Positions 525-29,904 are shown, counted from the stretch's first letter. The stretch is DNA of 64,000 bases from Cyanidioschyzon merolae (GCA_000091205.1 AP006501.2); one strand, 5' to 3'. Program-made: numbers and translations. Notes: generated from the letters alone by a model not told the origin.

Positions 525-2364
525 GTAGAAGAAAACCGGTTGACTCTAAGACGTGCGCAGATGCTCAGATACGTTGCTCAGCACACAAAGCGCATATACA
601 CAACATTTGCCATGCACTTGGATACGCTTCACACTGCCGCACGCATGCATGCACGCAATGTCAAGTCCGCTGAGAGGCGCTTCGCGCGTGCAGAGCCGTT
701 CGGAGGCGCACTCCAGATTTGGCGCGAAACGCGTGCAGTTTCGATTCCCTGAGACACGACAGCACCAAGGCGTGCGTCGGGATCGCAGCACCCGCGGAGG
801 CAGATCGGAGCAAATGAGCCGGCGGTACCTGCCTGCAGGTCCGATGCAGACCATGTTTGTGTGTGTGCGCGCGCGTTTTTTTGCTGACTCACACAAGGCG
901 ATAGGATACATGCCCCGCACATTTTGGCGAGCTTCGTGGACATGAAGCAGCATGTCAGGGCAGTATCCCTGACCAGGTGTCGAACGAACGCCGCTCTCTA
1001 TCGCGCGGATGACGTCTCGTCGTAGAACGCGATCAGGTACTACTCCTGCGGCGGAGAATTTTTTTTTACAGAAGCAGCGCCTTGCAATCCCAAGATCGCT
1101 TATAAAGCGCGTGATCTTTGAGCGTCCAGCAGAAGCATACAGAGAGTTGGATGTTCAGCAGGAACGCGCTTCGCGTGCGTGGACGCAGCCTCTACGAGCC
1201 TCTTGTTTGCGAGACCACTAACCTCAGGTTCATACATCGGAAAAGGTGTATCGGCATTGAGACAAGAATGGAAGCAAACGACCCAAAACTTTCGATTTGA
1301 TAGTTCCAGGTGCCACCATCCAGGTACACTGTGCTGGATTCGGACTTGCGATGTGTTTCCACAAACGATATGTGTCGCCTACTTTTCCAGAAGCTTTGGC
1401 AGTTACATCACGCAGCGCGGATTCAGCGTTTCTGTATCGCCTTCGCTATGCACAGCTGCATTCAGAGACCCAATGGGGGCAATCCATAATATTTTCAGTG
1501 ATATCGAATAATGCGACACCATTATCGTACACCATTTGCCGGGGAAAACAGATCATGTGTACTTAGAAGGCGCTCTTGCTTTTCTGGATTGCTGAACGGC
1601 GTCAAACCAGTTCCTGTCTCCAGGGGAAGATCTAGTGCCCTCTATCCTGGTCACTGACCATTTTCCAAGGTAAGCCTGCAGCGTTTGAGCACAATAGCCG
1701 CTCCGATTACAGAACGATTGCCTCGAATGTTCGCCCGACACGAAGCCGCTGGAAGCTCCCGAATCACAACGCATATCCGAATGTAGATCGAGGCGTTCAC
1801 GTCTTGGTAAAGATATTGTTTGCGCGCAATGCTGCTGGTGGAATCTCACACCATTGCGAACCGTTCACCCGCAATTACTCGTCATCTGAAGTTCGACCAG
1901 CTTGCATAAATGCCATCTCGTGTGTGCATCTCTTTTTCGCGCTCTTCCTCTATACCTGTTTCAGCGTGCGCTCGTGGTCATGATCCACGTATGTTGCCGT
2001 CAACGCATCCATGGGAATCGTACAGCATCGACTCCGGTACACGTTCAATGCTCTGGGCGAGGGTCAAGGATGTAGCGCCTGCGCCCAACACTCCATCCAG
2101 CGCCGTGGGCTGTCCCCAGACGACGCACCTCATCGGACCATGGCTTTTCCCACTCACGGAACAAATTCGCGAAAGCACCCTTCTTGCGTACGCAGAAACG
2201 AAACTCGTGGCGACCGCAGCGCGCACCTAAGCACTCCTAAAAAAATGATCCTCACTTGCGTTTCAATGCTCATGGACTCTCTGAATAAAATGTACAATGC
2301 AGCCCGCTTTGCTTGATGCGTGGTGCTCAGAGCGTCGAGACGAGTGCTGACGCCATCACTGCAC

Positions 2365-3904
2365 TTATCGGTATGCCTCCTGGCATCCGTCACACCGACT
2401 CCGGGTCGTAATGCTCCCTCGAAAAAACAGGTCGCATGGCATCTGCTGCTTCGAGCATCCATTATGTTGTGGCATGAAGCTTAGATCGAAATATTCCAGA
2501 TGAATATGGACAGCTAGCAGCCCTGCTTTCGGAATACCTACGATCTGTCGCTTGACGAGGAACGTCGAGGCGAGACAAGTTACGCTAGCCTTCATCGAGG
2601 GAGACGCTACAAAGCCCTTCATAACGTCCCGCATCTCGAAGTTCGCAAGATGCTCTCCGTCGATTTGTGTTCGTGCTGAGTTCACGAAAACGGTTTGAGA
2701 CGGATTCTTTCGCTCCGGCAGTTTTCCCGTTCTCGTCATCATCGTCCATTTTTGAGAAGTATCGTTCTGCTCTTGGTCTCGTACATCAATCGCCTTCTCC
2801 TTTACATCACTGAGTGGCATGAACCGGTTGCCATCCTCCAAAATCGTTTTCGATCGAGACTCAAAGGAATTGAGTGTAAGTTGGAACCGAATCTCACCTT
2901 TCCTATCAAAGCATCTGGGATTCCGCAAGCGCCGTATCAACTCATTCATGTTCGCGAGCAGACCCACGGAATGCAGCTCGCGTGTAGGTCCCGAACCCAC
3001 GCATCTGCGCACGAGCGGAGGAGTATCAGAGCAGTTCAGGGCTATTGAAAGTAGAAAACGAATTTTCCAAGGAACATTAGCTGAAGAACGGTGTCGCGGG
3101 TGCGAAAAACTCGTCTATGGAACCACGAGCATAAGAAAGGTACTTGCGAACAGCGAAAATGCTTGCGGCTGAATTGAAACCCGGGAAAAACGCTCGCACG
3201 AACAGCAGCTCAACACCGATCTCAGCTGCGTACTCCATGGTCGTGTTTGCGTGATGGAGGGCGAGTTTGCCAAGGTACAAGCTAAAAGGGTGTGGGAAGC
3301 AGAAGACCTCAATACTGCTTCGACGGAGAGTGATTTCTTGAACAACACCTGTCTGTTTGGAGATGTACGGGCGACTACATGATAGAATCGTCGCCTCGGC
3401 TAATGTTGTAAGGGTGCTCGCTTTTCCCTTCTTTGCAAACAGCGCTTTGCCGGTTACTGAACACCTGTACAAAGATCTACAATTTCTTCCGAGTGCAGCC
3501 GCATCGAGTGAGACGACCACGAATCCGTCCGGTGATAAGCGTTCGTGCTTCACGGTGGAATCGATTAAGTTTTGTTCCATACGCCATGGTCTCGCTCGGA
3601 AGCGTACCTTTGCCCTTGCCCATCGGCATACCTTCGTACCCACTCGTACCAACGGTACGAAATCTTTAGAAACTGTGGCATCTCCAATCGTTTCTCTTAG
3701 TGAACACATGGCGTGACCTTGATTGACAATGACACCTTCATGCAGAGCGTCTTTGACAAGCAATGTTTGGGGTGCACGACGTCCACTGTCTGAACTCCGC
3801 GATTGCATCGTGCATCTACCGCTTGACCGCAGGATAACTGAAATGTATCCATGAGTGTGTTTCCCGCATGCTTGCAGTCCCGGAATAAAGTCTTTCGCAG
3901 ACAT
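2365..3904 (-). CDS. Hypothetical protein in two ORF blocks (3904-3077 and 3012-2365) joined by a +1/-1 frameshift; possibly a pseudogene or a sequence error
   Basis: Block 1 ends ...PATPFFS with TAA at 3077-3079. The reading frame of block 2 (VRRCVGSGPTRE...) stays open upstream through the 65-nt gap to within 1 nt of that stop. Block 2 'starts' at a GTG. Combined length about 490 aa; no confident family. Confidence 0.35.
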
Positions 3905-8531: not shown

Positions 8532-9886
8532 ATGCGCTACACCGGATTCAGATAAACATGGAACATTGACCCATCCGCTATGTTCCTTTTCATATGATTT
8601 TTTCTGAGCGATCTTAGATGCACCATTGGCATTCGAGGTGCAGCAGTAGGTGCGTACGGATTCATACGTGGTTTCGGGGCTCCAGCTTGTCTATTCAGTG
8701 TGCCGCTATCGACTAGTTGGTGCTGGAATTTTTTAGTGCGCTGGAATCAAAACATTACGTGTTGCTATCGAATACGGGATCGCAACAGAATACATGTCAC
8801 TGACCAAATCGTATGTACAAGCGTCCGCTCTCCTCCTTTGCTACCGTTTCGTATGCTTCAGTCACACAATCTTCGTGTTTTCCATCTTTCCGTATCACAG
8901 AGGCTCGTGAGTGCGGCTACTCGTACCGCCAGATTGACGCGGATAATACCTCGACAACGCCCCGTAGCGGCCGCTTTGTAAGCGCATCCCCAACAGTCAC
9001 TGAACCTGTCACGTCAAATGATCCTGATCGATTGAACGGCAAATCCGTCTGCCTTCGTGGGCATCGACGGAACTGCATTCACGCTCAGCTTGATCCATCT
9101 CACCGGGCTATGCTGGCAGGGTCTCCCGTCTCTCCTGCTAGAATGTGAGAGCATCGTCGACTAGGGCTTGGGTTAGCGCAGCGATCGCTTCCGGGGCGGC
9201 GAGCGCCTCACCGCTTCTGACCGAGTCAGCGTCGACGCATCGAGAATGCTCGACATCGTGCACCGACCTGGACTTTGCTGCAGATACCTCTATTATCCTG
9301 GATACGATCGCGTTCCGCATACGCTCTATCGAACGGAGCAGCGTGCGCTTTCGAGTGCAGCGGACAGCGTACTTGCCAAGCGTCCGCTCAGGAGTGGAAA
9401 CAGCGGCGGGTTCCATGTCGAACCTCGTTTACTGCGAATAGCACGAACACGGGCAAAGCGTGTAGGCATCACGCGCGATAGGGCGACGCTCGGATGACGA
9501 GGGTGTTTGGCGAACACACGGGAACGACTACCGTTATCCAAGCGTCGCTGCTGCAGCGCACGAATCTATTCTGTATACGAGCAAGATGAGCGCGACGAGG
9601 GAAGCGAAGCTCGTAACGTCCGCCTGGACGTGACCTGCATTGAGCACAGCCAAAAGCAACGAGACCGACACATGAGCGCTGCACTCCATGTCCTTCGACG
9701 AAGGAGAACGCTGCTGGCGTGAGAGGAAACGGAGGCGTATGGAAACACGGAGAGAAGCGAAAGGACCGAGAGGCAGTCGCACCAGAAACCGTAAGGGCTG
9801 GTCTTGACGACGCCCGAGAACACACTTAAACTTTAGCTCGCATACCCGCATAAGAGGTGCATTTTCATACTACGCTGACATGGATG
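8532..9886. repeat. Direct repeat copy 1 (about 1.35 kb); partner at 28117-29451
   Basis: Homology starts at 'cagataaacatggaacattgaccc' (8532 / 28117) and ends at 'gcattttcatactacgct' (9886 / 29451). Embedded ORFs 8700-8981 and 28276-28557 differ at 2 of 93 residues, so the copies are about 98% identical. Confidence 0.85.
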
Positions 9887-12042: not shown

Positions 12043-13326
12043 CTATGAAGCCGTTGGGCTCGACACGGGATCTTCGCTGGCGATGTCCTCGGCCTCGTCC
12101 TCGGAGTCTATTTCATCCGTCGCTGGCCAGATGCTCGGAGGCATATGCTTCATCTGGACAGAGGGAGCACCTTCTAGTTGGCGCAATTGTTCGATAACTT
12201 TGCTCTTCACCTTCTCTAGATAATCTCTCGAATTCTGGTTCTCCAGTTCACGCATTGGTTGAATATGGAGAGAATATTCTGGAGCGAAGTATTCCCAGTA
12301 ATCATTGTATGGAATCTGGGCGTCTACCGATATGCCTAGAAGCACCGAGGTCTCAAAGAGCCAGCAGCGGGCAACGTTTCGGATGTTGTAGCCACCACCG
12401 CCGAGGACCAGCATCGGGATTCGGAACGAACGAACAAAAGCCACCGCATTCGCATGTCCCTGTACCGTCAAGTTAAAGCACCCGAGTCGATCATGGGCCA
12501 GAGAATCCGCGCCACACTGCATCACGATTGCACCCGGTTGATATACTTCGATGACCTTGGTTATTATCGGCTCGAAAATGCGACTGAAACCTGCATCATC
12601 CATGCCGTCTTTCAGGGGCACGTTCACCGCGTATCCTTCACCGCGCCCGTAGCCGCGGTCCCATACATCTCCGGTTCCCGGGAAAAAGTTGTCTCCGTAT
12701 TTGTGGAAGGACACCGTGAGCACTCGATCTGTGGTGTAGAAGGCTTCTTCGACACCATCACCATGATGCACATCAATATCGATGTAGAGCACACGCGGGT
12801 AGAGACGCAGCAGTTCGAGAATTGCCAGTACGATATCGTTCACATAGCAGAAACCGCTCGCTTCACTTTTCTTGGCATGATGAAGACCACCTGCCCAGTT
12901 AATCGCAATATCACTGGTACCCGACATGAGTTTTCTGGCACCGTCGATACTACCGCCGGCAGATACGGCGCAAAAGTCCCAAAGACCGTCAAACAGCGGA
13001 CAGTCGCCGTGTTGTCGTCCGACGTTAAACCGCTGTAGCTGGTCCAAAACGTCGTCGGTTATGGTGTCCGGGGTTGTGTTTCGCAGGAACTCTATATAGT
13101 CGTGGGCGTGGAACTTTTCGCACTCCTCAGGGCTCGCTTTACGAGGCTTGTAGACGTCCATATGGCGATAGAGACCGTACGCGAGACATAGGTTGTGCGT
13201 GATGGCCATTCGGTGCGGTTTCATGGGATGATGCTGTCCATAATAGTAGCCCCCAACATCAAAGTCCATAAAATAGGCCACGCGCAAACGGTCGGTGGAA
13301 CCATACAGAGCCTGGCTCGACAGCAT
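12043..13326 (-). CDS. Class I histone deacetylase (RPD3/HDAC1-like), 427 aa, intronless
   Basis: ATG (plus-strand 'cat' at 13324-13326) verified. Classic HDAC catalytic motifs are present: [44 protein letters not shown], and an acidic C-tail. Confidence 0.9.
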
Positions 13327-13459
13327 GAGTCCAGTGAAGATCGAGACGTTCGCTAGAGCACCGAAAACAAGCGAGGAACCTGAAGCGTCCGGGTGGCTTT
13401 GTATGCACGGATGCTCGAAGCCTAGCTAGCGCACAACTTGGCTGAGGATGCGCACCCCT

Positions 13460-16005
13460 GGAAACAAACGTCTTTCAAAAGAAAAACGTTGCTGCCAGTG
13501 GTACAGTAGTGGCGGCAACCGCACCCTAGCCAAGAAGTCTCCAACTGATGTGCAGACGCCTTCCAGCTTTTTTCGACTGGCCACCCACTACTGCTTCCAA
13601 CTTTTTCCCATATAATTCCACATTCAGAGATGGTTCCATAAAGTTTTCTCTTGTCAGCTCTGGGGGTCTATTCTCCATCAACGCATATTTCCTTATATTG
13701 CTGGCAGCATTAAAGTCTCGGTTCATAAACTCCATACGTTTCGTGCCGTTGGGAGTTGTACTCACTAATGCAAGTAGTCCACGAACTTTCGCGCTCCTTT
13801 CCATTTGCTCTTCCGTCAGCGTACCGTACTTTCTTATAACCTCAGGACTCCGCTGGCACTTTTCCATCTCGACCCTCTGAAGTGTACACCCTAGCTCATG
13901 GTGTGTATAGGACGTTCGAAACTCATCTACAGGTATCGTGACGATACTCCGTGCACACTCTTTGTACGTTCTTGTCGTTGGAGCTGGCGTAGTTCCTTGC
14001 TTGGGTCTTCCGTCACCCTGCTCCGTACGCTACTACGAGTCTCTGACTTTCATCCTCCTTCAAGGCGCTCAGCAGATTGAAAAAGTTCGCGAATGCACGC
14101 TGCTTCCCACAATACAAATTCATTCGCAGTCGAACCCACCGGGGCTTGGTCTACTCTTTCCACAGCGCATACCAGTGAGCAATACGAAGTTCCATGAATT
14201 TCCGAAGAGCCTGAATGTCCGCTCGTCGGCTCGTCACCTCGCTCATAGCTTCCAGATGCTCTTTCATTCTTTCATTCCATGCAGCAATTTTCTTCCTCGC
14301 ATTCATTATACCGGATTCTCGATAGTATCTCGCTCTCGAGAACCTCAAAAGACGCATGTATTTCTGACGTAAGTTACCATCAGTACCATCTTCCGCACGC
14401 TGGGGTACTGCGATGGTTATGTTATTTGTGTTTCCGGGATCCGCGCTGACGACAAAGTCGTTATCTTGCACCTCCTGCGTCGCAGGATCCGCCTCCTTCT
14501 CATCTTCATGCATCGTCGCGCCTGCATCCTTCGTCTCGGGCGCAGCCGAGGGAGGGACTGGACGATCTGTCTTCAACCGCCGATAGTGTATACACAAGGC
14601 TACTCCATCGGTTTCGATCATCTCAGTGAATACCTTTTGTTTGCTGACTTTGAGACGTTTGAAATCGAAGATATTCTTCCAGTATGTCTGCCGGTTTTCA
14701 CCGGAGAATTCCTTCCTGCTAACATCGAAATCAGGACTGATCTCGCTCGTGATGCTGCAAAGACGCCAGAGTCGATAGTCACAAAATGTGACTTGATATT
14801 GTACATTGGAACCACGTTGAAGCGCTTCCCCATTAGGAACGCCTTCCGTCTCTCCCACTCTTCATTTTTTCCTCATTCAGCCTCATCTCTGCCGTGCGTT
14901 CGAGTTCGCGGTCCAAAAACACGAAATACCTCAAGATGAGGAGGTAGTATCTTTCCTTATCTTTTCCAACTCTGATATCTTGTCTGCTGGATTAACCAGC
15001 CCCAGTACCGCACGGTGCTCTTGTATAACCGCACGGATTACAGAAGCTTCATTCGTGCACTAATTCGACGCCTTCTTGTCAACGAACTCGATCTCATCTT
15101 CATGATGGCGATCGTTCGTGATGCAATTGATAATCGCCCATTTTCCTTCGCGAGACAGACCCGGGTGGAGTGCAACCACGGCGCGTATCATGAAACGTTC
15201 GAAGTTCGCTGTCAAATGGTTCTTCAGATTCGTGAGGTACTTCATGGCCCCGTAGCTGTAAATATCCCAGTCACCCTTGTACCGAGTACCCTCGAAGCTG
15301 TAGAAGGAATGTTTTTCGTGGAGGGCATGCACTAGCACATTTTCCCTCCGCGCTTTCTCTGTACCAAGCATCAGGTGAGGAATAAAGGTCTTGTCGAAGA
15401 ACTCGCCCGGAATCTCGACCTTTTCCATGTGCGTCCCGTCGCGATACATCTCTCTCACCAAATGCATCAGTCCTGACGACGCCTTGACAATATTCTTCGA
15501 GTACGACGCAACACGTTTTTCGATAGCTTCTCGCAACTTTTCCCTGTACGGATCCTTGATCTGTCCAAGAAGAAAGGTTTTCACCACCATCTCGTCGCAC
15601 AGTTGTCTTTCTTGCCGCTTTCGACGTAGGGCCTCCCCCGTTTTTGCGTTTTCTTCTTATCCTGCTCTTCTGGAATCGGCACTGTTTTTTGTTTTTTTTC
15701 TGGCACCCGGCGACACTGGGCCTCCAGGATCGTAGACTTGCTTTTTCATAGCTTTCCTTTTTTAGTTTTTTTTGAGAAAGAACGCTCTTTGAACTCTTCT
15801 GTTATATACTGCGAAAAAAACACTTGATTAGACTTGTTCGAAGTTTGAAACACAATTGAAATGAAAAACTGTACTTGGCTATGAAGTTAACGAAAATACA
15901 ACTTTTACATTAGATCTACATGCTAGAGATCAGGATCACGTTCCCCTTCAACAACGGCATGTGCGTAGCGTCTCATGCCTGCCTGATCTCCGAGGTGCAC
16001 TCACC
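13460..16005. repeat. Left arm of the large inverted repeat (about 2.55 kb); partner at 20268-22870
   Basis: The reverse complement of the left arm aligns with the right arm. The ORF trios 15060-15590 / 14151-14858 / 13526-13867 (-) and 20696-21226 / 21428-22192 / 22476-22658 (+) are near-identical. The inner boundary matches at 'atcgcgctcggtgagtgcacctcggagatcaggcaggcatgaga'. The outer ends are diverged but still alignable to about 13460 and 22870. Confidence 0.85.
13526..15590 (-). CDS. TnpB/Fanzor-like RuvC nuclease (OMEGA-type RNA-guided endonuclease candidate), left copy, in three ORF blocks: 15590-15060 (helical N-terminal part), 14858-14151 (RuvC-I region), 13867-13526 (RuvC-III region). 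The gaps are introns or shared frameshifts.
   Basis: ATG at 15590 verified ([19 protein letters not shown]...). Block 2 carries the RuvC-I-like ...[19 protein letters not shown], with the Asp codon at 14439-14441. Block 3 carries the diagnostic RuvC-III ...[19 protein letters not shown], with the Asp codon at 13715-13717 (D-x-NAA-x-NI as in TnpB, Fanzor and Cas12). Block 2 starts at GTG, so it is not an independent gene. The frame upstream of block 3 stays open ([22 protein letters not shown]...), suggesting a +1 frameshift or intron junction near 14013-14029. Confidence 0.6.
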
Positions 16006-16599
16006 GAGCGCGATGCAAACTAGTCACAAATTATTTATTAAAGAACAACTATCTTAAAAGCCCCATACAGCACGCGCGCCTATGGGGTCTAGTTTTTCCG
16101 AAGAAGCTCTGAAAGTGGGTTAAACCGGGGTGCTTGGGCGACGACGAAGGAAGCCCACGCCAGGGACCATGACCGCAACGAACGGAGGGGCGGAGGCAGT
16201 GGCAGCAGAAAATATTGACGAGAGTTCTGAGTAGTTATCCGCTGCTCCCGAAACAACGCTGCAGGTTCCGGCGCAAATCCTGGATCCATCCTCGAACTCG
16301 GGCTACGTTTTACCTCCCACCTTGAGCACCTACCTCAACTTTGGAAACACTCTCGGCGGATACTTCGGAAGGCGGCTATCGATATGCTCGTGGTCGAAGC
16401 TGGAATAAGCGACTTACCCGCCTATGTGTTTGGGGAACGGATACGTAACCGCTGAACGGGTGCTTTGCAGACTGTTCCCAATGGTTGAGGGTAGCTTCAC
16501 GCGTCCGGCAAGATAAAGTTCGCATTCGAATCGACCTTGACTAATGTACTTCTGATTCTACGCTAGCGCTGCGGCAGACACTCAATGAACGACTGGAAT

Positions 16600-19500
16600 G
16601 CAGGAGGCGCTGGTGGCATGTGCTCTCACACACCTTGTGGAGGGTGCATCTAAATGGACGACGCATCTCTCGAGTACCGCAGCGTTACTCCTATACCCTT
16701 ATGCGCTACGACTCGATAGGTTTCGCATCATGGAATATTTGCGGTGTGGCCTCGATACTAGACGACGAGATATCGAATTACCAGTACAGTAATGAAGAAC
16801 TGATACAAGTCGAGGACTGTACAATAGGAAAAGAGACCCAACCAGACACGGAGAAGGAGACACAGAAACCTCATGATCCACCTAGATGCAAAATAACCAG
16901 AGAAAGTAGCTCAGGAAAGAGCCCGAAGAAGAAAAAGACCAGCAAGAAATAAACAGAAGAATAGAAAAAAGAACTCCCAAATGAGCCCATCACAAGGTAT
17001 CCCCCGAGAGGGCACCCCAGCTGGAACTCAAGAAAGCCGTCGCCAAACCCAGGCACCTACTCACAGCGCTGAAGATCCGAAAAGCCGTGCATACAAATTT
17101 TTTGACCAATTGACACGCGAGTTTGTAGATGGGAATCAGAAGATTGCCAGAGAGCTGGGACTGCTTGCACCAGAACGCAACAGTTGCAAACCTCGGTACC
17201 TGAAACGACGTACCAAAACTCGGATTGATGAATGCTACCGAGTCTATAAGATCGTCAACCGCACCGCCATACACGCCAACGCCGGAGACAAAGAAGCGAA
17301 GGCAGCGCTACCGGCGCTACAGGCGCAACATGAAGAAGCTATCAAAAGAAAGAAGAAACTTTCCAGAGAAGACAAACGAGAGGATCGAAACCGCAGAATC
17401 GCCTCCCTGGCGAAATCTATGCTGGAGAGCACCAACGAAGATGAGATCTGGCGCTACATTCGATCGAGACTCGACCCACCAAAAAAGTGCTTGGGGCTCA
17501 CACCAACTCTGTATAAGGAAGAGCTGAGGACGGAGCGTGCCTCAGTGAATGAGGCCTGGACAGACCACTGGACAGAGCTGCATGAAGAAGCAACTGGACA
17601 CTGCTAAGACCCAATCTATTGGCACCAATATGCTGCAGAACTACCGCGCCTCGACCCGGTACCGGAATGGAACGACCCAATCTTCTGGCCTGAATCTGTC
17701 CGGACTCTGCTATGCTCAAGCAACCGCAAAACACCTGGCTTTGACGGTATCCCTACGGAGTGGATGAAACTGGTGATCCCAAAAGACGGGACAACAGGGA
17801 CACCATCGATACCAGATGAACCTGACAGAATCTTAGGCAAGCGCCTTCTGGAGCTCATCCAACGCATGTTCGAAGAAGCGTACATCCCAGATGTATGGAG
17901 GACTGCCGAGGTCGTATCGATCCTCAAAAAGGACTCCGAACCCCACAGACATGAATATCTACCGGACTATGCGCCTCATCCCGTCAATCATGAAGCTACT
18001 TTGCGCCAACCTCACGAACCGGACTCAGAGGGGCCTTGAGGAACGCAACTTCCTCGCCCCAGAGCAGGCTGGATTCCGGAGCCGCGAGGAGTGCATGAGC
18101 CATGACCTGACCTTCATTGAAGTGGTGCAACGTCGCTCCATTAGCTGCCAACAACCAACTTACGTATGCTTCATCGACTTTCAAAAGGCCTTTGACACGG
18201 TCCCGCACGAGGCTCCATTTCTGAAGATGGAACGTGCCAGAGTCTCCGGAAAGTGCTTAGCGTTCTTCCGTGCGCTCTATGCAGACTCGTGGATGTGCAC
18301 CCGACTGGGCGACTGCTCAAGAACCCCTTCGATAAGAATCCGCCGTGGACTGCGACAGGGCGACCGCGCATCCCCGCGCCTTTTCAACATCTTCATCAAC
18401 GATCTGCTGAACAACTGCAGACAATACGGGCTTCAGGTGTCGTGGATAGACTGTGGAGAACCCGGTGAGGAGCGCCTACATAGAAACCGCCTCGCAGGCC
18501 TTCTACTTGCGGACGATGTCGTGCTGTTGGCACCCGCCCCGGAAACGCTTGCGGCTAGCATGCAACAAGTCAGCGCCTGGGCCGATCGCTGGGTTATGAA
18601 CATAGGAGCATCGAAGTGCGGCGCCATGGTCATCCTTGGAGACTCGCAGCGCATTCGCAATCGCTCGTGGCGGTTGCAGAATCAGGAAATTCCGATCGTG
18701 GAAAAATATCGCTACCTGGGGGTCTGTCTCACGCCGACGCTCGACGAAAAGGCACAAGTCGACGAGATGATCGCCAAGATGCATAGACGTACAGAGATCG
18801 CACGTCCATTCTTATCCGACCCCTCTATCTGCATAGCAATCCGTACGAGGGCACTAAGGATGTGTATCATCCAGCCTTCGACCTGGGGTGCTGAATGGTG
18901 CGGCATGAAGCACACAAATGCCTCGCGTCTGCATACAGCCGCCAACAGGGCAATGCGACTCGTTGGTGTTGGATGCTCAGTGCAGCGCAGAGCGACCAAC
19001 CCGCTGGCACTCGGACTTGAACTCCAAATAGCCTCGATAGAAGCGATAGCAGCAGGCTGCCGGGCATGTATACGGGCCAAAGGGCCCACTATGCGCACCT
19101 CCTTGAGTCGGATTTTCATGCAGACCCCAACGCACCGCTAGAACACTTGGATGAAATCAGCGCAGATTTGGCTGAAGCGCCTCTTACGCGAAAACACGCT
19201 ACCCAATCGTTCCCCAGGAATGTAGAAGACTTCAGACGCCTCAAGCGAACGGTCCAAACAACAATATGGGAAGGTAGACACGGTACCAGTCGCGCTAGTA
19301 ACGCCGGCTTGACTCTATATCGGAACTACAACCTAGCATACACATGCAAGTACTGGTGGGAGGCGCTGGAATTCCCGGGACTTGCTCGCGGTACCCTGTG
19401 GCTTGCCAAAATCCGTGTTAGTGGCATCTGGCTACCAGCACCGGCTCTAAGCCGTACGGGAACACTGGAACCGCACTGGGAGTCACACTGTCCCTGCTAT

Positions 19501-19700
19501 CGAGACGAAATCCCCGAGACGCTGACATATTTAAGCTTACAGTGCCCGCGCTCGAAGCAGGAGCGCAGCGAGCTCCTTGAAGGACAGCAGGAGCTCGGCA
19601 TCACCGTGATAGTCGAAGGCCGGACACTCACTCTGAGTGTAGCACTGGCAACTGATGGTCCGCTAACGGAGCCTCAGCGCTCATGAGTGGCGAAGAAACT
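16600..19700 (+). mobile_element. Degenerate non-LTR (LINE-like) retrotransposon remnant at the centre of the palindrome
   Basis: RT motifs are split across frames. IPDVWRTAEVVSILKKDSEP (in ORF 17764-18039) is followed, after a frameshift, by YRTMRLIPSIMKLL...FIDFQKAFDTVPHE...RGLRQGDRASPRLFNIFINDL...LLADDVVLLA (in ORF 17891-19141). The C-terminal ORF 19066-19686 carries a Cys/His motif, HCPCYRDEIPETLTYLSLQCP. The upstream ORF 16981-17607 is K/R/E-rich. No APE endonuclease domain or poly(A) tail is seen. Confidence 0.7.
17764..19141 (+). pseudogene. Reverse transcriptase (non-LTR type), frameshifted
   Basis: RT domains 0-7 are recognisable but distributed over two overlapping frames, with the frameshift near 17900-18040. 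Confidence 0.7.
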
Positions 19701-20267
19701 CACATGCTACCTTCTAGGCAGCAGGTCCAACGAATCGGATGAGCACACGGGTTTAGTGCTCTTTGTGCCTACCCACTGTGGTGGGTGTCAAGCACAAACC
19801 CGCATTGCCAACCGACAACACATTCAATGCATGATCACGAAGGAAAGAGGCGGCTCGCACGATATATCCTAACAGCCAAGTTTCTCCAGCGTGTCGTGCA
19901 GCGAAGACAAGCCTGCATCCGCAGACTGTCCGAGCACAAACTGACGACGAGACCCGATTCTACTTCGGTTGAACCACGCCTCGAGCCGACGCGCTCTGGG
20001 GTATAGAAAAGCTGCTCTAGCTCGATGAACTATCTGCTCCAGCATTTAAGGTCCAAAGGCGGATACGGAAAGGCAGGTACTAGGCACACACGATAGGACG
20101 TATGAAACGACCAGAGTATCCGAGGTGAAGTATAGGTACTGTAGCTTGGAGGCAGGCTGTTTGATGGATACCTAACCGCGCACTGAAAAAAATAACATAA
20201 AAAAGTAAGAAAAGAAAAAGCGCACAATTGGAAAATGCTGGCACAAGTAAACGTCTTGTCCATGAAA

Positions 20268-22870
20268 AAAAGAATCGCGCTCGGTGAGTGCACCTCGGAG
20301 ATCAGGCAGGCATGAGACAAGACGCGCGTGCCGTTTTTGAAGGGAAACGCGATCCTGATCAGTAGCGTGTTGTTCTGCTGTAAAAGTCGGATTCCCGTTC
20401 AGATCATAGCAAAGTATAGTTTTCATTTCAATTGTGTTTCAAACTTCGAACAAGTCTAATCAAGTGTTTTTTTCGCAGTATATAACAGAAGAGTTCAAAG
20501 AGCGTTCTTTCTCAAAAAAACTAAAAAAGGAAAGCTATGAAAAAGCAAGTCTACGATCCTGGAGGCCCAGTGTCGCCGACTGCCAGAAAAAAAACAAAAA
20601 ACAGTGCCGATTCCAGAAGAGCAGGATAAGAAGAAAACGCAAAAACGGGGGAGGCCCTACGTCGAAAGCGGCAAGAAAGACAACTGTGCGACGAGATGGT
20701 GGTGAAAACCTTTCTTCTTGGACAGATCAAGGATCCGTACAGGGAAAAGTTGCGAGAAGCTATCGAAAAACGTGTTGCGTCGTACTCGAAGAATATTGTC
20801 AAGGCGTCGTCAGGACTGATGCATTTGGTGAGAGAGATGTATCGCGACGGGACGCACATGGAAAAGGTCGAGATTCCGGGCGAGTTCTTCGACAAGACCT
20901 TTATTCCTCACCTGATGCTTGGTACAGAGAAAGCGCGGAGGGAAAATGTGCTAGTGCATGCCCTCCACGAAAAACATTCCTTCTACAGCTTCGAGGGTAC
21001 TCGGTACAAGGGTGACTGGGATATTTACAGCTATGGGGCGATGAAGTACCTCGCGAACCTGAAGAACCATTTGACAGCGAACTTCGAACGTTTCATGATA
21101 CGCACCGTGGTTGCACTCTACCCGGGTCTGTCTCGCGAAGGAAAATGGGCGATTATCAATTGCATCACGAACGATCGCCATCATGAAGATGAGATCGAGT
21201 TCGTTGACAAGAAGGCGTCGAATTAGTGCACGAATGAAGCTTCTGTAATCCGTGCGGTTATACAAGAGCACCGTGCGGTACTGGGGCTGGTTAATCCAGC
21301 AGACAAGATATCAGAGTTGGAAAAGATAAGGAAAGATACTACCTCCTCATCTTGAGGTATTTCGTGTTTTTGGACCGCGAACTCGAACGCACGGCAGAGA
21401 TGAGGCTGAATGAGGAAAAAATGAAGAGTGGGAGAGACGGAAGGCGTTCCTAATGGGGAAGCGCTTCAACGTGGTTCCAATGTACAATATCAAGTCACAT
21501 TTTGTGACTATCGACTCTGGCGTCTTTGCAGCATCACGAGCGAGATCAGTCCTGATTTCGATGTTAGCAGGAAGGAATTCTCCGGTGAAAACCGGCAGAC
21601 ATACTGGAAGAATATCTTCGATTTCAAACGTCTCAAAGTCAGCAAACAAAAGGTATTCACTGAGATGATCGAAACCGATGGAGTAGCCTTGTGTATACAC
21701 TATCGGCGGTTGAAGACAGATCGTCCAGTCCCTCCCTCGGCTGCGCCCGAGACGAAGGATGCAGATGAGCAGAAGGCGGATCCTGAGACGCAGGAGGTGC
21801 AAGATAACGACCTTGTCGTTGGCGCGACGATGCATGAAGATGAGAAGGAGGCGGATCCTGCGACGCAGGAGGTGCAAGATAACGACTTTGTCGTCAGCGC
21901 GGATCCCGGAAACACAAATAACATAACCATCGCAGTACCCCAGCGTGCGGAAGATGGTACTGATGGTAACTTACGTCAGAAATACATGCGTCTTTTGAGG
22001 TTCTCGAGAGCGAGATACTATCGAGAATCCGGTATAATGAATGCGAGGAAGAAAATTGCTGCATGGAATGAAAGAATGAAAGAGCATCTGGAAGCTATGA
22101 GCGAGGTGACGAGCCGACGAGCGGACATTCAGGCTCTTCGGAAATTCATGGAACTTCGTATTGCTCACTGGTATGCGCTGTGGAAAGAGTAGACCAAGCC
22201 CCGGTGGGTTCGACTGCGAATGAATTTGTATTGTGGGAAGCAGCGTGCATTCGCGAACTTTTTCAATCTGCTGAGCGCCTTGAAGGAGGATGAAAGTCAG
22301 AGACTCGTAGTAGCGTACGGAGCAGGGTGACGGAAGACCCAAGCAAGGAACTACGCCAGCTCCAACGACAAGAACGTACAAAGAGTGTGCACGGAGTATC
22401 GTCACGATACCTGTAGATGAGTTTCGAACGTCCTATACACACCATGAGCTAGGGTGTACACTTCAGAGGGTCGAGATGGAAAAGTGCCAGCGGAGTCCTG
22501 AGGTTATAAGAAAGTACGGTACGCTGACGGAAGAGCAAATGGAAAGGAGCGCGAAAGTTCGTGGACTACTTGCATTAGTGAGTACAACTCCCAACGGCAC
22601 GAAACGTATGGAGTTTATGAACCGAGATTTTAATGCCCCTATCAATATAAGGAAATGAGCGGTGCTGGAGGAAAGACCCCCAGAGTAGACAATAGAAAAC
22701 CTTTTTGGACAACCTCTCAAAGTCGAACTATATGAGATAAAGTTGGAACCAGTATTAGGTGGCCGATCCAAAAAGGCTGGAAGGCGTCTGCACATCAGCT
22801 GGAGGCGTTTCGTCTAGGGCGCGTTCGCCGGCACGACTGTACACGGCCGCCGGCTGTGCGTCACGTGGAG
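20268..22870. repeat. Right arm of the large inverted repeat
   Basis: See the left arm. Relative to the left arm, the right arm carries a 57-bp in-frame tandem duplication at about 21761-21900 and indels after the RuvC-III motif. Confidence 0.85.
20696..22658 (+). CDS. TnpB/Fanzor-like RuvC nuclease, right copy, in blocks 20696-21226, 21428-22192 and 22476-22658; the C-terminus is frameshifted relative to the left copy
   Basis: ATG at 20696 verified. Block 1 differs from the left copy at 3 of 176 residues. RuvC-I Asp codon is at 21902-21904 (SADPGNTNN). RuvC-III Asp codon is at 22626-22628 ([11 protein letters not shown]). The ORF stops right after the motif, whereas the left copy continues about 50 aa; the equivalent residues ([12 protein letters not shown]) appear in another frame at about 22770-22810. 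Confidence 0.55.
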
Positions 22871-22953
22871 CCGCGAGCGGCGGGCTTCTACCAAGTGCCG
22901 CTTGTACCAAACGCACTTGCACCTCGTGTGGACACAGACGCATACCTGAGTGC

Positions 22954-25875
22954 ATGGCCGATTCTGGAGATGAAACGGAGTGGGAACTTGCTGCCGAGAA
23001 GTTTGTAGCGACTGTTGCACCGAAAGAAACTACTCCGTCTCGGGGGAGGCCCTCGAGTCGGGCGACGCGCTCGCCGTTGCGCGAGGCTCCGCCCGAGGCC
23101 GCGCCCAACGCGGGAGCCGGCACTGCAGGCCGACCTGGACGCAGTGCGGGCAGCTCGGGGCCCTCGGAACCCACCGCAGACACCACCACAGGCACCACAC
23201 GCGTCGCTCGAGGTGCCCAACCGAAACCTGCAGGCAAGCCGAGCGGCGTGGGTGGAAACAGAGGGAGCGACGTGGCTGCGGCCCCGTCTCAGGTTATTCA
23301 GGTTTTGCGTTTCAGCAGTGATGCGTCGCTCACAGCAACCGTTCGGGGGAGTCAAGCAAACCAGCAGGCGCTCTGGGATCGGGCGCGATCGGCGTTCGAG
23401 TCGGCGCTGCGTCGGAACGCAACACGACTGGAGCTCGATGCGCTGGCAGCGGCCCTGCAGACTGTAGGCGTCGACATCTCTCTTGGTCGAAACGCAGGCA
23501 CACGCGGCGGCGGACCTGCAACGAACGGGCCCACTGACGGCAGCGGTGGACGGCGTTCGGGAGCCGCTGCGGGCGGCACGGCGTCGCGAACTCCGCAGCC
23601 AGCGCTCACGCGAGGCCGCAACGCCTGGACCCCCTCGTTTCTGACCAAAACTGCGGATACGTCCGCTACAGAGGGGGAGAATCTGGTCAATTCCTCTCGA
23701 CGAAAAGCAAAAGCTATACTGAACAAACTCGTACCGGAGAAGTTCGTCACGCTAGCGCAGCAGATTCTTGATATGCCGCTCCATCATTACGACGTACTGG
23801 AAGCGGTGATTTCAGAAATCTTTGATAAAGCGCTTGCGGAGCCGTATTTTTGTGGAGTCTACGCAGATCTGTGTGAAGTTTTGAACCGCGCGCTTCCGAG
23901 CATCGCGATCGAGAGTGCTTCGGGGACCAAACAAACCAACTTTCGCAAAATGCTTCTCGCGCGCTGCCAAGCTGAGTTTGTGCAGCGCGCCCTAGCCTCG
24001 GAAGAGCGCGCAACAGACGAGCAGGAACTTGAGGTTTGCGCCCACAACCGACGCCGCACGCTAGGAAATACAATTTTCGTGGGTGAGCTCTTCAAGCGGC
24101 ATCTGCTGAGCGAAAAAATCATTCATGAGTGTGTACAGATGCTGCTGAAAGAGGGCGAGAACGAAGATAGCATCGAAACGCTTGCCAAGTTGCTCTCCGT
24201 CGCCGGCAGCAGCATGGATCGCCCTGAGGCTCGGTCCTACATGGACGCCTACTTTACCAAGATCGAAGAAATGGCAAACAACGCACAAATTCGAGCTCGT
24301 TATCGGTTTATGCTCAAGGATTGCGTTGAGCTGCGTAAGCAGAAATGGAAGCCGCGACGAGCCCAAGAACGGCCAGCGACACTGGATGAGATTCACGGGA
24401 AAAAGTCCGGCCGTGCCGCTCGGCAAGCGAGTCAGTCGCTGGCACGCAAAGCTGCTCAGCTGCGCTTCACGGGAGCTGATGCAGAGGCGCCCAAGCCGGA
24501 GGCGGAATCCACAGTTCCAGCAGGGCAAGTGTCCGCGTCTGCCACTGTCCAGGGTCGTGTTGAGAACGCCCGTAACCAGAACGTTGCCGGCGAGACGGTC
24601 ACGGACGCTGCACACGCCAAGTCGGAGTCGGGACCGGTCCCCGATCGGACTGTCGTTTGGACCGAAAACCCTGAACTATTGCGGACGTATATTCGTGGTA
24701 TCATTGAAGACTACGTGGTGAATCCGTATCCGGCAGAGGTACAGGTGGCGCTCACCGAGTCCGGACTTGCCGCACAGCCTGACCTGCTGGCTTTGGCTGG
24801 CGTTCAGGAACTCTTCTCCATGGTCTGCAGTGCGCGCGGGCATGAACGGCAGCCGCTTGTTCGATCCTTTGGAGATGCCTTCCAGCATGTACTTTCTAGG
24901 GAGAAGCTGCTCGAGGCTCTTGTATCGATTACGTCCAATTTGCTTACCTTCGAAGACGAGCTTGATATGCCTACAGCAGGCAAAGTTCTCGGCGAGTTTC
25001 TCGGGACGTTATGCACTAGCCACTGCGCTACGTTCTTACACGACGCTGCTGATATTCATACAGTACTGGCAGCGGTTCCGCCTAATAGACAGGCATCCGT
25101 GCTGCGTTCCTTCTTGGAAACGCTCTTCCGACAGTATCCTTCAGATATGCGAGAGCGCTTCGGCGCTTCCCTGCGAGCACTACGTCCGCTTTTCGTGTCG
25201 CTCCCGCAAACGGAACAGCGCGAACTCGAAGAGCTACTTGCAAAATATGAACTGCTTGAGCTCGTTCCCGAATGGCAGCTCCGACGCCAGCTCCAATACT
25301 ATCTGGAACCTGGAAAGGAGCGTATCGCAGATGCAGCAGACTGGTTGCGAAGCTTCCTGCCCAGAGTGCGGGAAACGCTACGCTCCGAGGACGCAACAGC
25401 ATCCACTGCAAAGTCCAGTCTGAACGAATGGTACGCCTTTTGTCGATTCACTGCGGACCATATCCTATCAACTTATGTCATGGAAGCGCAATCGAGTAGT
25501 ACGATGGATATCATGCGGCGACTACGCCTGATGGTGCCGCTTCTTCGTGAAACAGCCGGAAACATGCCCGCGACCGATGAAACCGACGACGACGACGACG
25601 ACAGTGACCCCGCGGAAGACAAGGAGTGGCGTCAAGCCCAAGTGGCTTTTGCAGTGCAAGCAGGTTGTTATCGTTTGGACTTTCCCACTGATCTCATAAG
25701 CGGCATGTTCCAGGTGCTGTACGACGCGGATGTGATCTCAGAGGAGGCATTCGATCGCTGGCGGGAAGATGTACACGATACGACACCAGGAAAGCTCAAG
25801 GCGCTATTTCATGTGAATGCTTTTCTGAATTGGCTCAAGGAGACTGATGAAGAACCGGAGAAATCCGATGTGTAA
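22954..25875 (+). CDS. eIF4G-like translation initiation factor (MIF4G domain plus C-terminal W2 domain)
   Basis: MIF4G core: KAKAILNKLVPEKFVTLAQQILDMP...VISEIFDKALAEPYFCGVYADLCEVL...TIFVGELFKRHLL. W2-like C-terminus: FQVLYDADVISEEAFDRWRED. The track start 22759 is a GTG inside the inverted-repeat/Fanzor tail. The first ATG, at 22954, is used here, and the true start may lie further downstream. Confidence 0.75.
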   Translation: MADSGDETEWELAAEKFVATVAPKETTPSRGRPSSRATRSPLREAPPEAAPNAGAGTAGRPGRSAGSSGPSEPTADTTTGTTRVARGAQPKPAGKPSGVGGNRGSDVAAAPSQVIQVLRFSSDASLTATVRGSQANQQALWDRARSAFESALRRNATRLELDALAAALQTVGVDISLGRNAGTRGGGPATNGPTDGSGGRRSGAAAGGTASRTPQPALTRGRNAWTPSFLTKTADTSATEGENLVNSSRRKAKAILNKLVPEKFVTLAQQILDMPLHHYDVLEAVISEIFDKALAEPYFCGVYADLCEVLNRALPSIAIESASGTKQTNFRKMLLARCQAEFVQRALASEERATDEQELEVCAHNRRRTLGNTIFVGELFKRHLLSEKIIHECVQMLLKEGENEDSIETLAKLLSVAGSSMDRPEARSYMDAYFTKIEEMANNAQIRARYRFMLKDCVELRKQKWKPRRAQERPATLDEIHGKKSGRAARQASQSLARKAAQLRFTGADAEAPKPEAESTVPAGQVSASATVQGRVENARNQNVAGETVTDAAHAKSESGPVPDRTVVWTENPELLRTYIRGIIEDYVVNPYPAEVQVALTESGLAAQPDLLALAGVQELFSMVCSARGHERQPLVRSFGDAFQHVLSREKLLEALVSITSNLLTFEDELDMPTAGKVLGEFLGTLCTSHCATFLHDAADIHTVLAAVPPNRQASVLRSFLETLFRQYPSDMRERFGASLRALRPLFVSLPQTEQRELEELLAKYELLELVPEWQLRRQLQYYLEPGKERIADAADWLRSFLPRVRETLRSEDATASTAKSSLNEWYAFCRFTADHILSTYVMEAQSSSTMDIMRRLRLMVPLLRETAGNMPATDETDDDDDDSDPAEDKEWRQAQVAFAVQAGCYRLDFPTDLISGMFQVLYDADVISEEAFDRWREDVHDTTPGKLKALFHVNAFLNWLKETDEEPEKSDV

Positions 25876-28116: not shown

Positions 28117-29451
28117 GTTTAGCTCAGATAAACATGGAACATTGACCCATCCGCTATGTTCCTTTTCATATGATTTTTTCTGAGCGATCTTAGATGCACC
28201 ATTGGCATTCGAGGTGCAGCAGTAGGTGCGTACGGATTCATACGTGGTTTCGGGGCTCCAGCTTGTCTATTCAGTGTGCCGCTATCGACTAGTTGGTGCT
28301 GGAATTTTTTAGTGCGCTGGAATCAAAACATTACGTGTTGCTATCGAATACGGGATCGCAACAGAATACATGTCACTGACCAAATCGTATGTACAAGCGT
28401 CCGCTCTCCTCCTTTGCTACCGTTTCGTATGCTTCAGTCACGCAATCTTCGTGTTTTCCATTTTTCCGTATCACAGAGGCTCGTGAGTGCGGCTACTCGT
28501 ACCGCCAGATTGACGCGGATAATACCTCGACAACGCCCCGTAGCGGCCGCTTTGTAAGCGCATCCCCAACAGTCACTGAACCTGTCACGTCAAATGATCC
28601 TGATCGATTGAACGGCAAATCCGTCTGCCTTCGTGGGCATCGACGGAACTGCATTCACGCTCAGCTTGATCCATCTCACCGGGCTATGCTGGCAGGGTCT
28701 CCCGTCTCTCCTGCTAGAATGTGAGAGCATCGTCGACTAGGGCTTGGGTTAGCGCAGCGATCGCTTCCGGGGCGGCGAGCGCCTCACCGCTTCTGACCGA
28801 GTCAGCGTCGACGGATCGAGAATGCTCGACATTGTGCACCGACCTGGACTTTGCTGCAGATACCTCTATTATCCTGGATACGATCGCGTTCCGCATACGC
28901 TCTATCGAACGGAGCAGCGTGCGCTTTCGAGTGCAGCGGACAGCGTACTTGCCAAGCGTCCGCTCAGGAGTGGAAACAGCGGCGGGTTCCATGTCGAACC
29001 TCGTTTACTGCGAATAGCACGTACACGGGCAAAGCGTGTAGGCATCACGCGCGATAGGGCGACGCTCGGATGACGAGGGTGTTTGGCGAACACACGGGAA
29101 CGACTACCGTTATCCAAGCGTCGCTGCTGCAGCGCACGAATCTATTCTGTATATGAGCAAGATGAGCGCGACGAGGGAAGCGAAGCTCGTAACGTCCGCC
29201 TGTACGTGACCTGCAGTGAGCACAGCCAAAAGCAACGAGACCGACACATGAGCGCTGCACTCCATGTCCTTCGACGAAGGAGAACGCGGCTGGCGTGAGA
29301 GGAAACGGAGGCATATGGAAACACGGAGAGAAGCGAAAGGACCGAGAGGCAGTCGCACCAGAAACCGTAAGGGCTGGTCTTGACGACGCCCGAGAACACA
29401 CTTAAACTTTAGCTCGCATACCCGCATAAGAGGTGCATTTTCATACTACGC
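28117..29451. repeat. Direct repeat copy 2
   Basis: Near-identical to 8532-9886. Confidence 0.85.
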
Positions 29452-29904
29452 TAAAACGGGACTACTCATGCGCATACGGAGGTACAGATGTCGTGCACCG
29501 ATAGCGTTCCAAGCGCATCCACTTCGGAGTATCGATTCCCGAACCGCTCTCTTCAGTCTATATATGGTGACGCCTCATCGCCCTTGTGCCCTTCTTACCG
29601 TGTACGAAAGTAACTCGGGCCGCACGAAACACGTCATCAAAGTAGTGCTGCCTGCGGCGGCTGGCCCTCGAGCCTCCACTGTCACGCGGAACGTTTTCGT
29701 TGCGACGTCGACGGCGAGGACGCGCTTGGGGTCGCTTTGACGAGAGGCACTCACGTTTACGTCACTGGACCAGTAAAGGCGCTGGTTTCACGCGAAAGTT
29801 ACCAGTTCATCTTTCGCGACACGTCTGACGTTGTTTGTGAAGAACGCCCTGTCGAGGCCGTCAACAACGAAAACGCCCCTGTGTCCCATGCAGTTGTTAC
29901 CCAA

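Follow-up and report, generated by a model that had tools for sequence, protein, structure and literature searches.

The ribonucleic acid-guided nuclease activity of Fanzor proteins was shown in 2023, whereas one of the transposable elements (TEs) that encode them, CMe-1A of Cyanidioschyzon merolae, was already published with consensus sequences in 2013. As described by Bao and Jurka (2013, Mobile DNA 4:12, PMC3627910), CMe-1A has a consensus of 3169 bp and is present in C. merolae in ~150 copies that are ~80% identical to this consensus. It has no terminal inverted repeats (TIRs), was listed as being of unknown class with target-site duplications undetermined, and shares its 5' 635 bp with the repeat TE-N2_CMe at 95% identity; it encodes a 734-aa single-exon Fanzor1 protein, CMe-1, the only Fanzor1 family reported in C. 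merolae (PMC3627910). Here we describe a locus at positions 13,460 to 22,870 of a 64,000-nucleotide stretch of C. merolae DNA (GCA_000091205.1 AP006501.2; the whole stretch is referred to as the window), where two inverted arms surround a reverse-transcriptase (RT) element. A preliminary description made from the sequence of the window had presented it as a pair of TnpB/Fanzor-like RuvC nuclease genes in a long palindrome, possibly of an uncharacterised lineage. In our view, the locus very probably consists of two dead, head-to-head CMe-1A copies that were turned into a palindrome by gene conversion.

The two arms are ~2.5 kb each and occupy positions 13454-16014 (-) and 20274-22854 (+), with a 4.26-kb centre between them. 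A repeat search of the window resolved the inverted repeat, which is far above chance level, into a pair of 1284 nt (14489-15772/20514-21797, 98% complementary) and a pair of 1022 nt (13501-14522/21821-22842, 96% complementary), prolonged inward to 16014/20274 by shorter stretches. The palindrome and the head-to-head placement of the two copies, both of which read outward, were thus correctly recognized in the preliminary description. The consensus DNA of CMe-1A and the CMe-1 protein were taken for comparison from the supplements of Bao and Jurka 2013 (PMC3627910). In blastn, the left arm (16012-13469) matches consensus positions 648-3169 with 85.2% identity over 2549 nt, and the right arm (20276-22854) matches consensus positions 648-3147 with 84.5-88.6% identity; in tblastn, CMe-1 aligns to the left arm over residues 1-731 and to the right arm over residues 1-734. 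The left arm continues ~15 nt past the published 3' end, an extension inferred from the tails at other loci, and the right arm, according to the alignment of 3' ends, is without the terminal hairpin that is discussed below. Neither arm has the 5' 647 nt of the consensus (the TE-N2_CMe part). By sequence comparison the arms are copies of the published element CMe-1A, and the finding is in this respect a rediscovery, which leaves no room for an uncharacterised lineage. The typical divergence of CMe-1A copies (~80% identity to the consensus) and their mostly broken open reading frames (ORFs) agree with what is seen in the window; the window copies differ from the published element in that they are without the 5' 635-bp TE-N2_CMe part, are dead, stand head-to-head and share a homogenised core. 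The paper of Bao and Jurka (PMC3627910) makes no mention of this locus, of a missing zinc finger or of a 3'-terminal hairpin.

The family extends beyond C. merolae. A protein search with the conceptual translation of the left arm returned 56 relatives, nearly all from hot-spring metagenomes, including the intact 610-750-aa proteins P0001, P0048, P0050, P0051, P0054 and P0055 and one Haematococcus protein. A second, word-indexed protein search made with the alignment found almost solely close relatives and did not increase the diversity; the precomputed label is PF26935 (DUF8286). For locus comparisons, 80 family loci were taken from metagenomes, and an open frame of at least 650 aa is kept in only two of them. 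Frames of 722 aa and 747 aa that run from ATG to stop are present in loci L016 and L070. Copies of CMe-1A begin at consensus position ~1 or ~647, and 5'-truncated copies with intact 3' ends exist.

Both genes in the window are broken, and they are broken in the same way. The left CMe-1 pseudogene, at 13526-15749 (-), is bounded by the remnants of its ATG and of its stop codon, and the right one lies at 20537-22817 (+), as traced by tblastn and alignment to the consensus. Six frameshifting indels are common to both arms: +1 at consensus position 953, +2 at 1014, -1 at each of 1686, 1783 and 1892, and +1 at 2637. Both arms also contain at least three in-frame stops at sense codons of the consensus, the first in the sequence KKASN-stop in place of consensus KKTSRR, the second in WKE-stop-TKPRW in place of consensus WEEYTKPRW, and the third within the N-terminal K/R-rich region; the right arm has a private stop after RuvC-III in addition. 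Because the arms have the six frameshifts and three or more in-frame stops in common and the consensus gene is single-exon, both arms are pseudogenes, and, as their sequences read, neither window copy can encode a nuclease, contrary to the function that had been implied for them.

The preliminary description had divided each gene into three blocks that would, if joined, give a protein of 540-600 aa, with splicing suggested for the gaps between them, and had offered a decayed copy as an alternative; it is the alternative that holds. A working Fanzor gene pair whose blocks are joined by splicing or programmed frameshifting would be in line with the persistence of all three catalytic codons (D, E and D) in the left arm and with the intact members that the family has elsewhere (including that of Bao and Jurka, PMC3627910). 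However, the 'gaps' of 200 nt and 284 nt between the blocks translate to CMe-1 residues in other frames, i.e., they are out-of-frame coding sequence and not introns, and the six 1-2-nt indels and the TAG/TGA stops are found inside contiguous homologous sequence; moreover, the right arm stops directly after RuvC-III. C. merolae has very few introns. We therefore regard a working pair as extremely unlikely. The K/R-rich stretch, which had been left as possibly in-frame, is in frame in the consensus, where it constitutes the N-terminus of CMe-1, and the full consensus protein has 734 aa.

The distribution of identity along the arms is what points to gene conversion. Arm-to-arm identity is 84% at the inner edge (left-arm positions 16014-15868), rises to ~99.5%, and up to 100%, in a core that spans positions 13716-15867 on the left and 20420-22627 on the right and that we read as a gene-conversion tract, and falls to ~78% at the outer edge (left-arm positions 13715-13500). 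The 2.15-kb core has ~10 positions that differ between the arms and a single indel of 57 nt. The two edges remain alignable to the CMe-1A consensus, the right one being in places nearer to it than the left. The events behind this pattern may be pictured as follows. Two old, independently decayed CMe-1A copies, ~20% diverged from each other, would have stood head-to-head around the degenerate RT element; ~2.15 kb of one of them would then, most likely, have been pasted over the other by gene conversion to give the 96-98% palindrome, the right copy probably being the donor and the left copy the acceptor in the 10D lineage, and the original ~20%-diverged sequence would have been left at both edges of each arm. 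All the disabling mutations would be shared because the conversion covered the 2.15-kb tract.

Sharing of every disabling mutation is equally expected if a single dead copy underwent one recent inverted (palindromic) duplication, and it also fits such a duplication that both arms begin at consensus position ~648 and that head-to-head pairs recur in the CMe-1A family. Yet a recent duplication predicts uniform identity, while the observed identity drops from ~100% to 78-84% within both edges of the element in sequence that still matches the consensus and where the right edge can be closer to the consensus than the left. Besides, the sequences just inside the two arms are different repeat modules, which goes against a duplication and fits conversion between two separate copies. 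We consider a recent duplication quite unlikely, and the palindrome, rather than being a special Fanzor architecture, is best explained by two old copies and gene conversion.

Contigs from metagenomes offer a view of the same site in other strains. In contig L006, the flank is 99-100% and the outer edge 95% identical to the window, but the core is only 79% identical to its left arm, and contig L001, with a flank that is also 99-100% identical, carries a third version of the left copy, which retains no more of the element than its final 556 nt. As judged from these sequences, this suggests either recurrent ectopic conversion at the left-copy site among natural Cyanidioschyzon strains or chimeric metagenome assembly. 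Gene conversion between arms is known in genomic palindromes and between dispersed repeats, human Y-chromosome palindromes being an example. The locus has in common with these systems the near-identical inverted arms maintained or produced by conversion and the sharp boundaries of identity; here, in contrast, each arm is a dead transposon copy of 2.5 kb, the tract is only ~2.15 kb long and the arrangement is without evidence of selection.

Assemblies are well known to go wrong at inverted repeats, and the palindrome could in principle be a collapsed or mis-joined repeat. The metagenome contig L005 (11 kb) is, however, collinear with window positions 20728-9750 at 98-99% identity, running through the left arm and the centre and 455 nt into the right arm, and the two arms differ from each other in their edges and in their unique flanking sequences. 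Since this independent contig is collinear with the window, the palindrome is not an assembly artefact of this record; we give an artefact hardly any weight.

The centre of the locus is occupied by a degenerate RT element similar to non-LTR (long terminal repeat) elements, at 16015-19950 (+; the right limit is approximate). Its RVT_1 ORF at 17891-19141 matches the Pfam model with E = 2.7e-22 and has R2 and LINE-1 ORF2 proteins as its best solved relatives; no long direct repeats flanking the element were found in the repeat search of the window. The 'LINE remnant' (long interspersed nuclear element) of the preliminary description is therefore a reasonable name for it. The RT element is multi-copy in metagenomes. 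An inverted TE-N2_CMe-like fragment at 19953-20243 (-) lies directly upstream of the right arm.

The junctions between these modules are not confined to the window. The left arm adjoins the 5' end of the RT element, a junction that is also present in metagenome locus L088, and the same RT-element end adjoins a Fanzor 5' end in L061/63 too; the right arm adjoins the inverted TE-N2-like piece followed by the 3' part of the RT element, a junction also present in L068 and L082. None of the loci with recurrent Fanzor/RT junctions has the histone deacetylase (HDAC) or the putative eIF4G-like gene that flank the arms in the window, i.e., these loci are not orthologous to it. What adjoins CMe-1A position ~647 (window 16015 and 20273; L088, L061/63, L068, L082, L016 and L040) varies: TE-N2_CMe in one orientation or the other, one or the other end of the RT element, or a further shared module. 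Two readings of this are that the element truly starts at position 647 and is nested in other TEs, or that composite units have been propagated. A search beside the 5' end at consensus ~647 for a motif resembling a target-adjacent motif (TAM) gave nothing convincing. Furthermore, CMe-1 3' portions stand head-to-head at no fewer than three other loci (L071, positions 1492-3543; L065/L067; L073), where the arms are cut near consensus ~2100 and are 74-81% alike. The window is thus not alone in having an inverted pair, and the unusual feature here is the high identity of the arms.

These recurrences raise the question of whether a Fanzor(-)/RT element/Fanzor(+) unit, or head-to-head dimers in general, could be made by the transposition mechanism itself, for example by snap-back synthesis, by RT-mediated mobilisation via the 3' hairpin or by site-specific insertion at the Fanzor 5' end, in which case the palindrome would be a structural class. 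The recurrence of junctions at non-orthologous loci (the left one in L088, the RT end in L061/63, the right one in L068 and L082) and the three other inverted pairs with arms cut near consensus ~2100 speak for it, as do the 5'-truncated copies with intact 3' ends, the strand-specific 3' hairpin and the listing of CMe-1A without an assigned class. On the other hand, the element shows neither a poly(A) nor an evident microsatellite tail and has no defined target-site duplications, position ~647 has many further 5' neighbours, and nesting of TEs in one another in a TE-poor genome can give recurrent neighbours. An origin of the palindrome in transposition is improbable.

Several observations nevertheless weigh against the explanation by two old copies and gene conversion that we prefer. 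Junctions between a Fanzor 5' end and an RT-element end, and head-to-head pairs, occur at other loci, and the head-to-head arrangement may partly be due to how these elements move. The edges of the arms are as diverged as any two members of the family, and because of this an independent insertion is indistinguishable from an ancient inverted duplication whose core was homogenised later. The comparison of strains uses short-read metagenome contigs, which may be chimeric inside repeats. Unlike the characterised Fanzor1 proteins, moreover, the CMe-1 clade is not known to have an omegaRNA, a TAM or cleavage activity.

The assignment of the arms to TnpB/Fanzor-like RuvC nucleases, made in the preliminary description from short motifs, is confirmed and can be narrowed. 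A profile of seven full-length family members matches the Fanzor1 proteins SpuFz1 (8GKH) with E = 7e-11 over 375 residues, PpFz1 with E = 8e-10 and GtFz1 with E = 4e-4, and has no other notable match. The metal-binding residues of SpuFz1 are D383, E541 and D606 (Saito et al. 2023, PMC10432273), which correspond to residues 777, 935 and 1000 of the maltose-binding protein (MBP) fusion chain, and in the alignment they stand opposite the GxDPG aspartate, the VDEFRT glutamate and the NRD aspartate of the family. Accordingly, the RuvC-I aspartate codon within 'SADPGN' (14430-14447 / 21896-21913) at 14439-14441 in the left arm (-) and 21902-21904 in the right arm (+) co-aligns with D383, and the RuvC-III aspartate codon within 'NRDFNA' at 13715-13717 (-) and 22626-22628 (+) co-aligns with D606; both had been located exactly in both arms. 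The RuvC-I aspartate of the DPG motif is invariant in the family alignment, and the RuvC-III motif aligns to SpuFz1 'NRDMLSTCNM'. Where 'NAASNI' had been given for RuvC-III, the right arm reads NAPINI and then stops. The candidate proposed for RuvC-II was the right one: the glutamate codon in 'VDEFRTS' (13910-13930 / 22413-22433) at 13922-13924 (-) and 22419-22421 (+) co-aligns with E541, with 'VDEFRTS' matching SpuFz1 'LDEYKTS', and the strand at the canonical RuvC-II position reads 'VVAYGAG' and is not acidic. Fanzors have been defined by this combination of a DPG motif and a RuvC-II glutamate displaced towards the C-terminus (Yoon et al.).

Fold comparison agrees with the profile. The AlphaFold2 model of the intact homologue P0001 has a mean predicted local distance difference test score (pLDDT) of 69.6, and in a Foldseek search against the PDB its best seven matches are all SpuFz, PpFz and GtFz (E = 7e-13 to 8e-10), followed by mimivirus Fanzor2, ISDra2 TnpB, Cas-phi and Cas12f; global TM-scores are 0.27-0.41, so that the evidence for the fold is the ranking of matches and not a superposition. 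A Pfam search of the separate blocks and of intact homologues gave no significant match, the best being OrfB/TNB with E = 0.15-0.23; the PF07282 score of 12-13 bits compares with a gathering cut-off of 26.3 and covers the RuvC-III end of the model only. Such sub-threshold scores are a limit of the Pfam TnpB models and not evidence against Fanzor. In the profile and structure searches that the preliminary description had proposed, Fanzor1 came out on top by both profile and Foldseek. On the strength of alignments and models, the CMe-1 family belongs with Fanzor1.

Among characterised systems, SpuFz1, GtFz1 and PpFz1 (PDB 8GKH, 9CER, 9CF0; PMC10432273; Xu et al. 2024, PMC11423790) are the closest matches by both sequence profile and fold. 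They have in common with CMe-1 the DPG RuvC-I motif, the shifted RuvC-II glutamate followed by T-S, the NRD RuvC-III motif, the order of REC, WED, RuvC and NUC, the location in multi-copy TEs and a 3' end that in CMe-1A is predicted to be structured, but their identity to it is only 12-15%; also, Spu-1 has 30-nt inverted repeats and CMe-1A has no TIRs. The TnpB proteins of IS200/IS605 and IS607 elements share the split RuvC fold, with ISDra2 TnpB (PDB 8H1J) matched by Foldseek at E = 0.06 and probability 0.99, and they are the model case for an omegaRNA encoded at the 3' end; unlike CMe-1, TnpB has a RuvC-II glutamate in the canonical position and a CCCC finger, is a much shorter protein and has a TnpA partner.

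An intact CMe-1A carries one intron-less gene for the 734-aa Fanzor1 protein CMe-1, which has the N-terminal K/R-rich stretch, REC, WED and a split RuvC with the DPG aspartate, the C-terminally shifted glutamate and the NRD aspartate. Judged by its homology to characterised Fanzor1 proteins, intact CMe-1 would bind an omegaRNA derived from the 3' end of the element and would cut DNA matching the flanking guide.

One feature sets CMe-1 apart. The CCCC zinc finger of the NUC domain was called conserved between SpuFz1 and ISDra2 TnpB (Saito et al. 2023, PMC10432273) and is part of the motif described as 'strictly conserved', CMe-1 having nonetheless been placed in Fanzor1 (PMC3627910). Between the RuvC-II glutamate and the RuvC-III aspartate (13706-13930 (-) and 22413-22637 (+)), the window copies contain no CxxC pairs, and the finger is likewise absent from the CMe-1 consensus and from 119 of the 124 close representatives of 50%-identity clusters. 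The guess of a zinc-finger-less lineage in the preliminary description is borne out, and the loss of the CCCC finger, judged from the aligned sequences, is clade-wide. The CMe-1 clade also takes in Volvox VCa-2 and Haematococcus proteins, and an exhaustive profile search gave 5202 representatives of the 50%-identity clusters with a cut-off of E <= 1e-3 and still 688 with one of E <= 1e-30.

The second feature is at the 3' end of the element. The 3' ends of the 80 metagenome family loci are of two kinds in sequence, tail A (...CCACTGGCAGCAACGTTTTTC-TTTT-GAAAGACGTTTGTTTCCAGGGG) and tail B (...CACCGTTGGCGTCGTTCGA-CTT-TCGAACGGCGTTGATGGTG), both of which fold to a terminal hairpin of ~19-23 bp and 45-50 nt. 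This hairpin extends 12-15 nt past the end of the published CMe-1A consensus, which appears to stop that far short of the hairpin end. Of 38 non-redundant copies, with a mean of -21.2 kcal/mol for the sense and -15.4 kcal/mol for the antisense strand, 33 fold better in the sense strand, and the folds contain one to seven G-U pairs per hairpin, with at least three in all but four of the 38 copies; because of the better sense fold and the G-U pairs, the hairpin is strand-specific. In an alignment of the 38 sequences, 81.8% of the cells in four proposed stems are paired, as compared with 34-53% in slid controls, and there are 28 double-change cells versus 17.3 in shuffles, a modest support that is partly circular since the stems were drawn from the same sequences. 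RNAalifold applied to broad 3' alignments returned almost nothing, the two tail types being out of register and many copies truncated, and no Rfam match was found in window positions 13000-23500 at E <= 1. The long terminal hairpin of the single-sequence folds replaces a stem drawn by hand, CGCC/GGCG.

In the left copy, the hairpin lies at 13454-13503 (-), 128 nt upstream of the HDAC start codon, and has ~23 bp with four G-U pairs and a folding free energy of -28.1 kcal/mol, as compared with -18.0 kcal/mol for the antisense strand (z = -5.1). The 3' end of the right arm folds no better than shuffled sequence (z = 0.04), its hairpin having been lost. From its sequence and predicted fold, the hairpin may be a candidate for the last stem of an omegaRNA scaffold or, equally, for a transposition signal.

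The surroundings of the arms can be described briefly. In the right arm only, a tandem 75-nt duplication that keeps the reading frame is found in the acidic linker region (21748-21897, +). To the left, a 427-aa ORF at 12043-13326 (-) is an exact match to HDAC BAM82711.1 / XP_005538747.1 of C. merolae 10D. To the right, a 1038-aa ORF at 22759-25875 (+), which from a reading of its translation only we presume to be eIF4G-like, adjoins the arm, with a GTG start that lies inside the 3' end of the element; its first ~30 codons are transposon sequence, and because of this its true start is probably further downstream. Elsewhere in the window, positions 37124-37267 (+) hold a short remnant with 54% identity to CMe-1 residues 673-720, which is probably what is left of one more Fanzor 3' end. 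Metagenome contigs that follow the left flank collinearly (window ~9043-9876, likely further left) also match positions 28124-29452 with ~99% identity over 834-1329 nt, which indicates a second near-identical dispersed repeat or duplication in the window that is unrelated to the Fanzor arms.

In this work, the motif-level call made earlier for the locus proved right and its gene model wrong. The family, its host and its consensus sequences have been known since 2013 and both window copies are dead; what the locus itself provides is a clean, small example of how gene conversion can turn two diverged transposon copies into a near-perfect palindrome. The zinc-free NUC domain, the way the element moves and its 3' hairpin are of wider interest, but as features of the clade and not of this locus. 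We found no discussion of the missing zinc finger of the CMe-1 clade in the accessible literature on Fanzor, nor of its strand-specific 3'-terminal hairpin in the literature that we found.

Taken by its sequences, CMe-1 may represent a large zinc-finger-less Fanzor1 clade (more than 5,000 clusters at E <= 1e-3) in which the D/E/D triad and rare intact genes have been retained. The way CMe-1A moves, for example via its 3' stem-loop, may in turn lie behind the head-to-head pairs and RT junctions that recur and the sense-strand hairpin. That both hold together, i.e., that the clade is active and zinc-free and that the pairs, junctions and hairpin are signs of how CMe-1A moves, with the window copies as fossils, is a tentative proposition that we consider rather unlikely. 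If it is true, members of the clade could function as RNA-guided nucleases whose NUC domain is zinc-free, and the CMe-1 branch, coming from a thermo-acidophilic host, would supply candidates for heat-stable enzymes.

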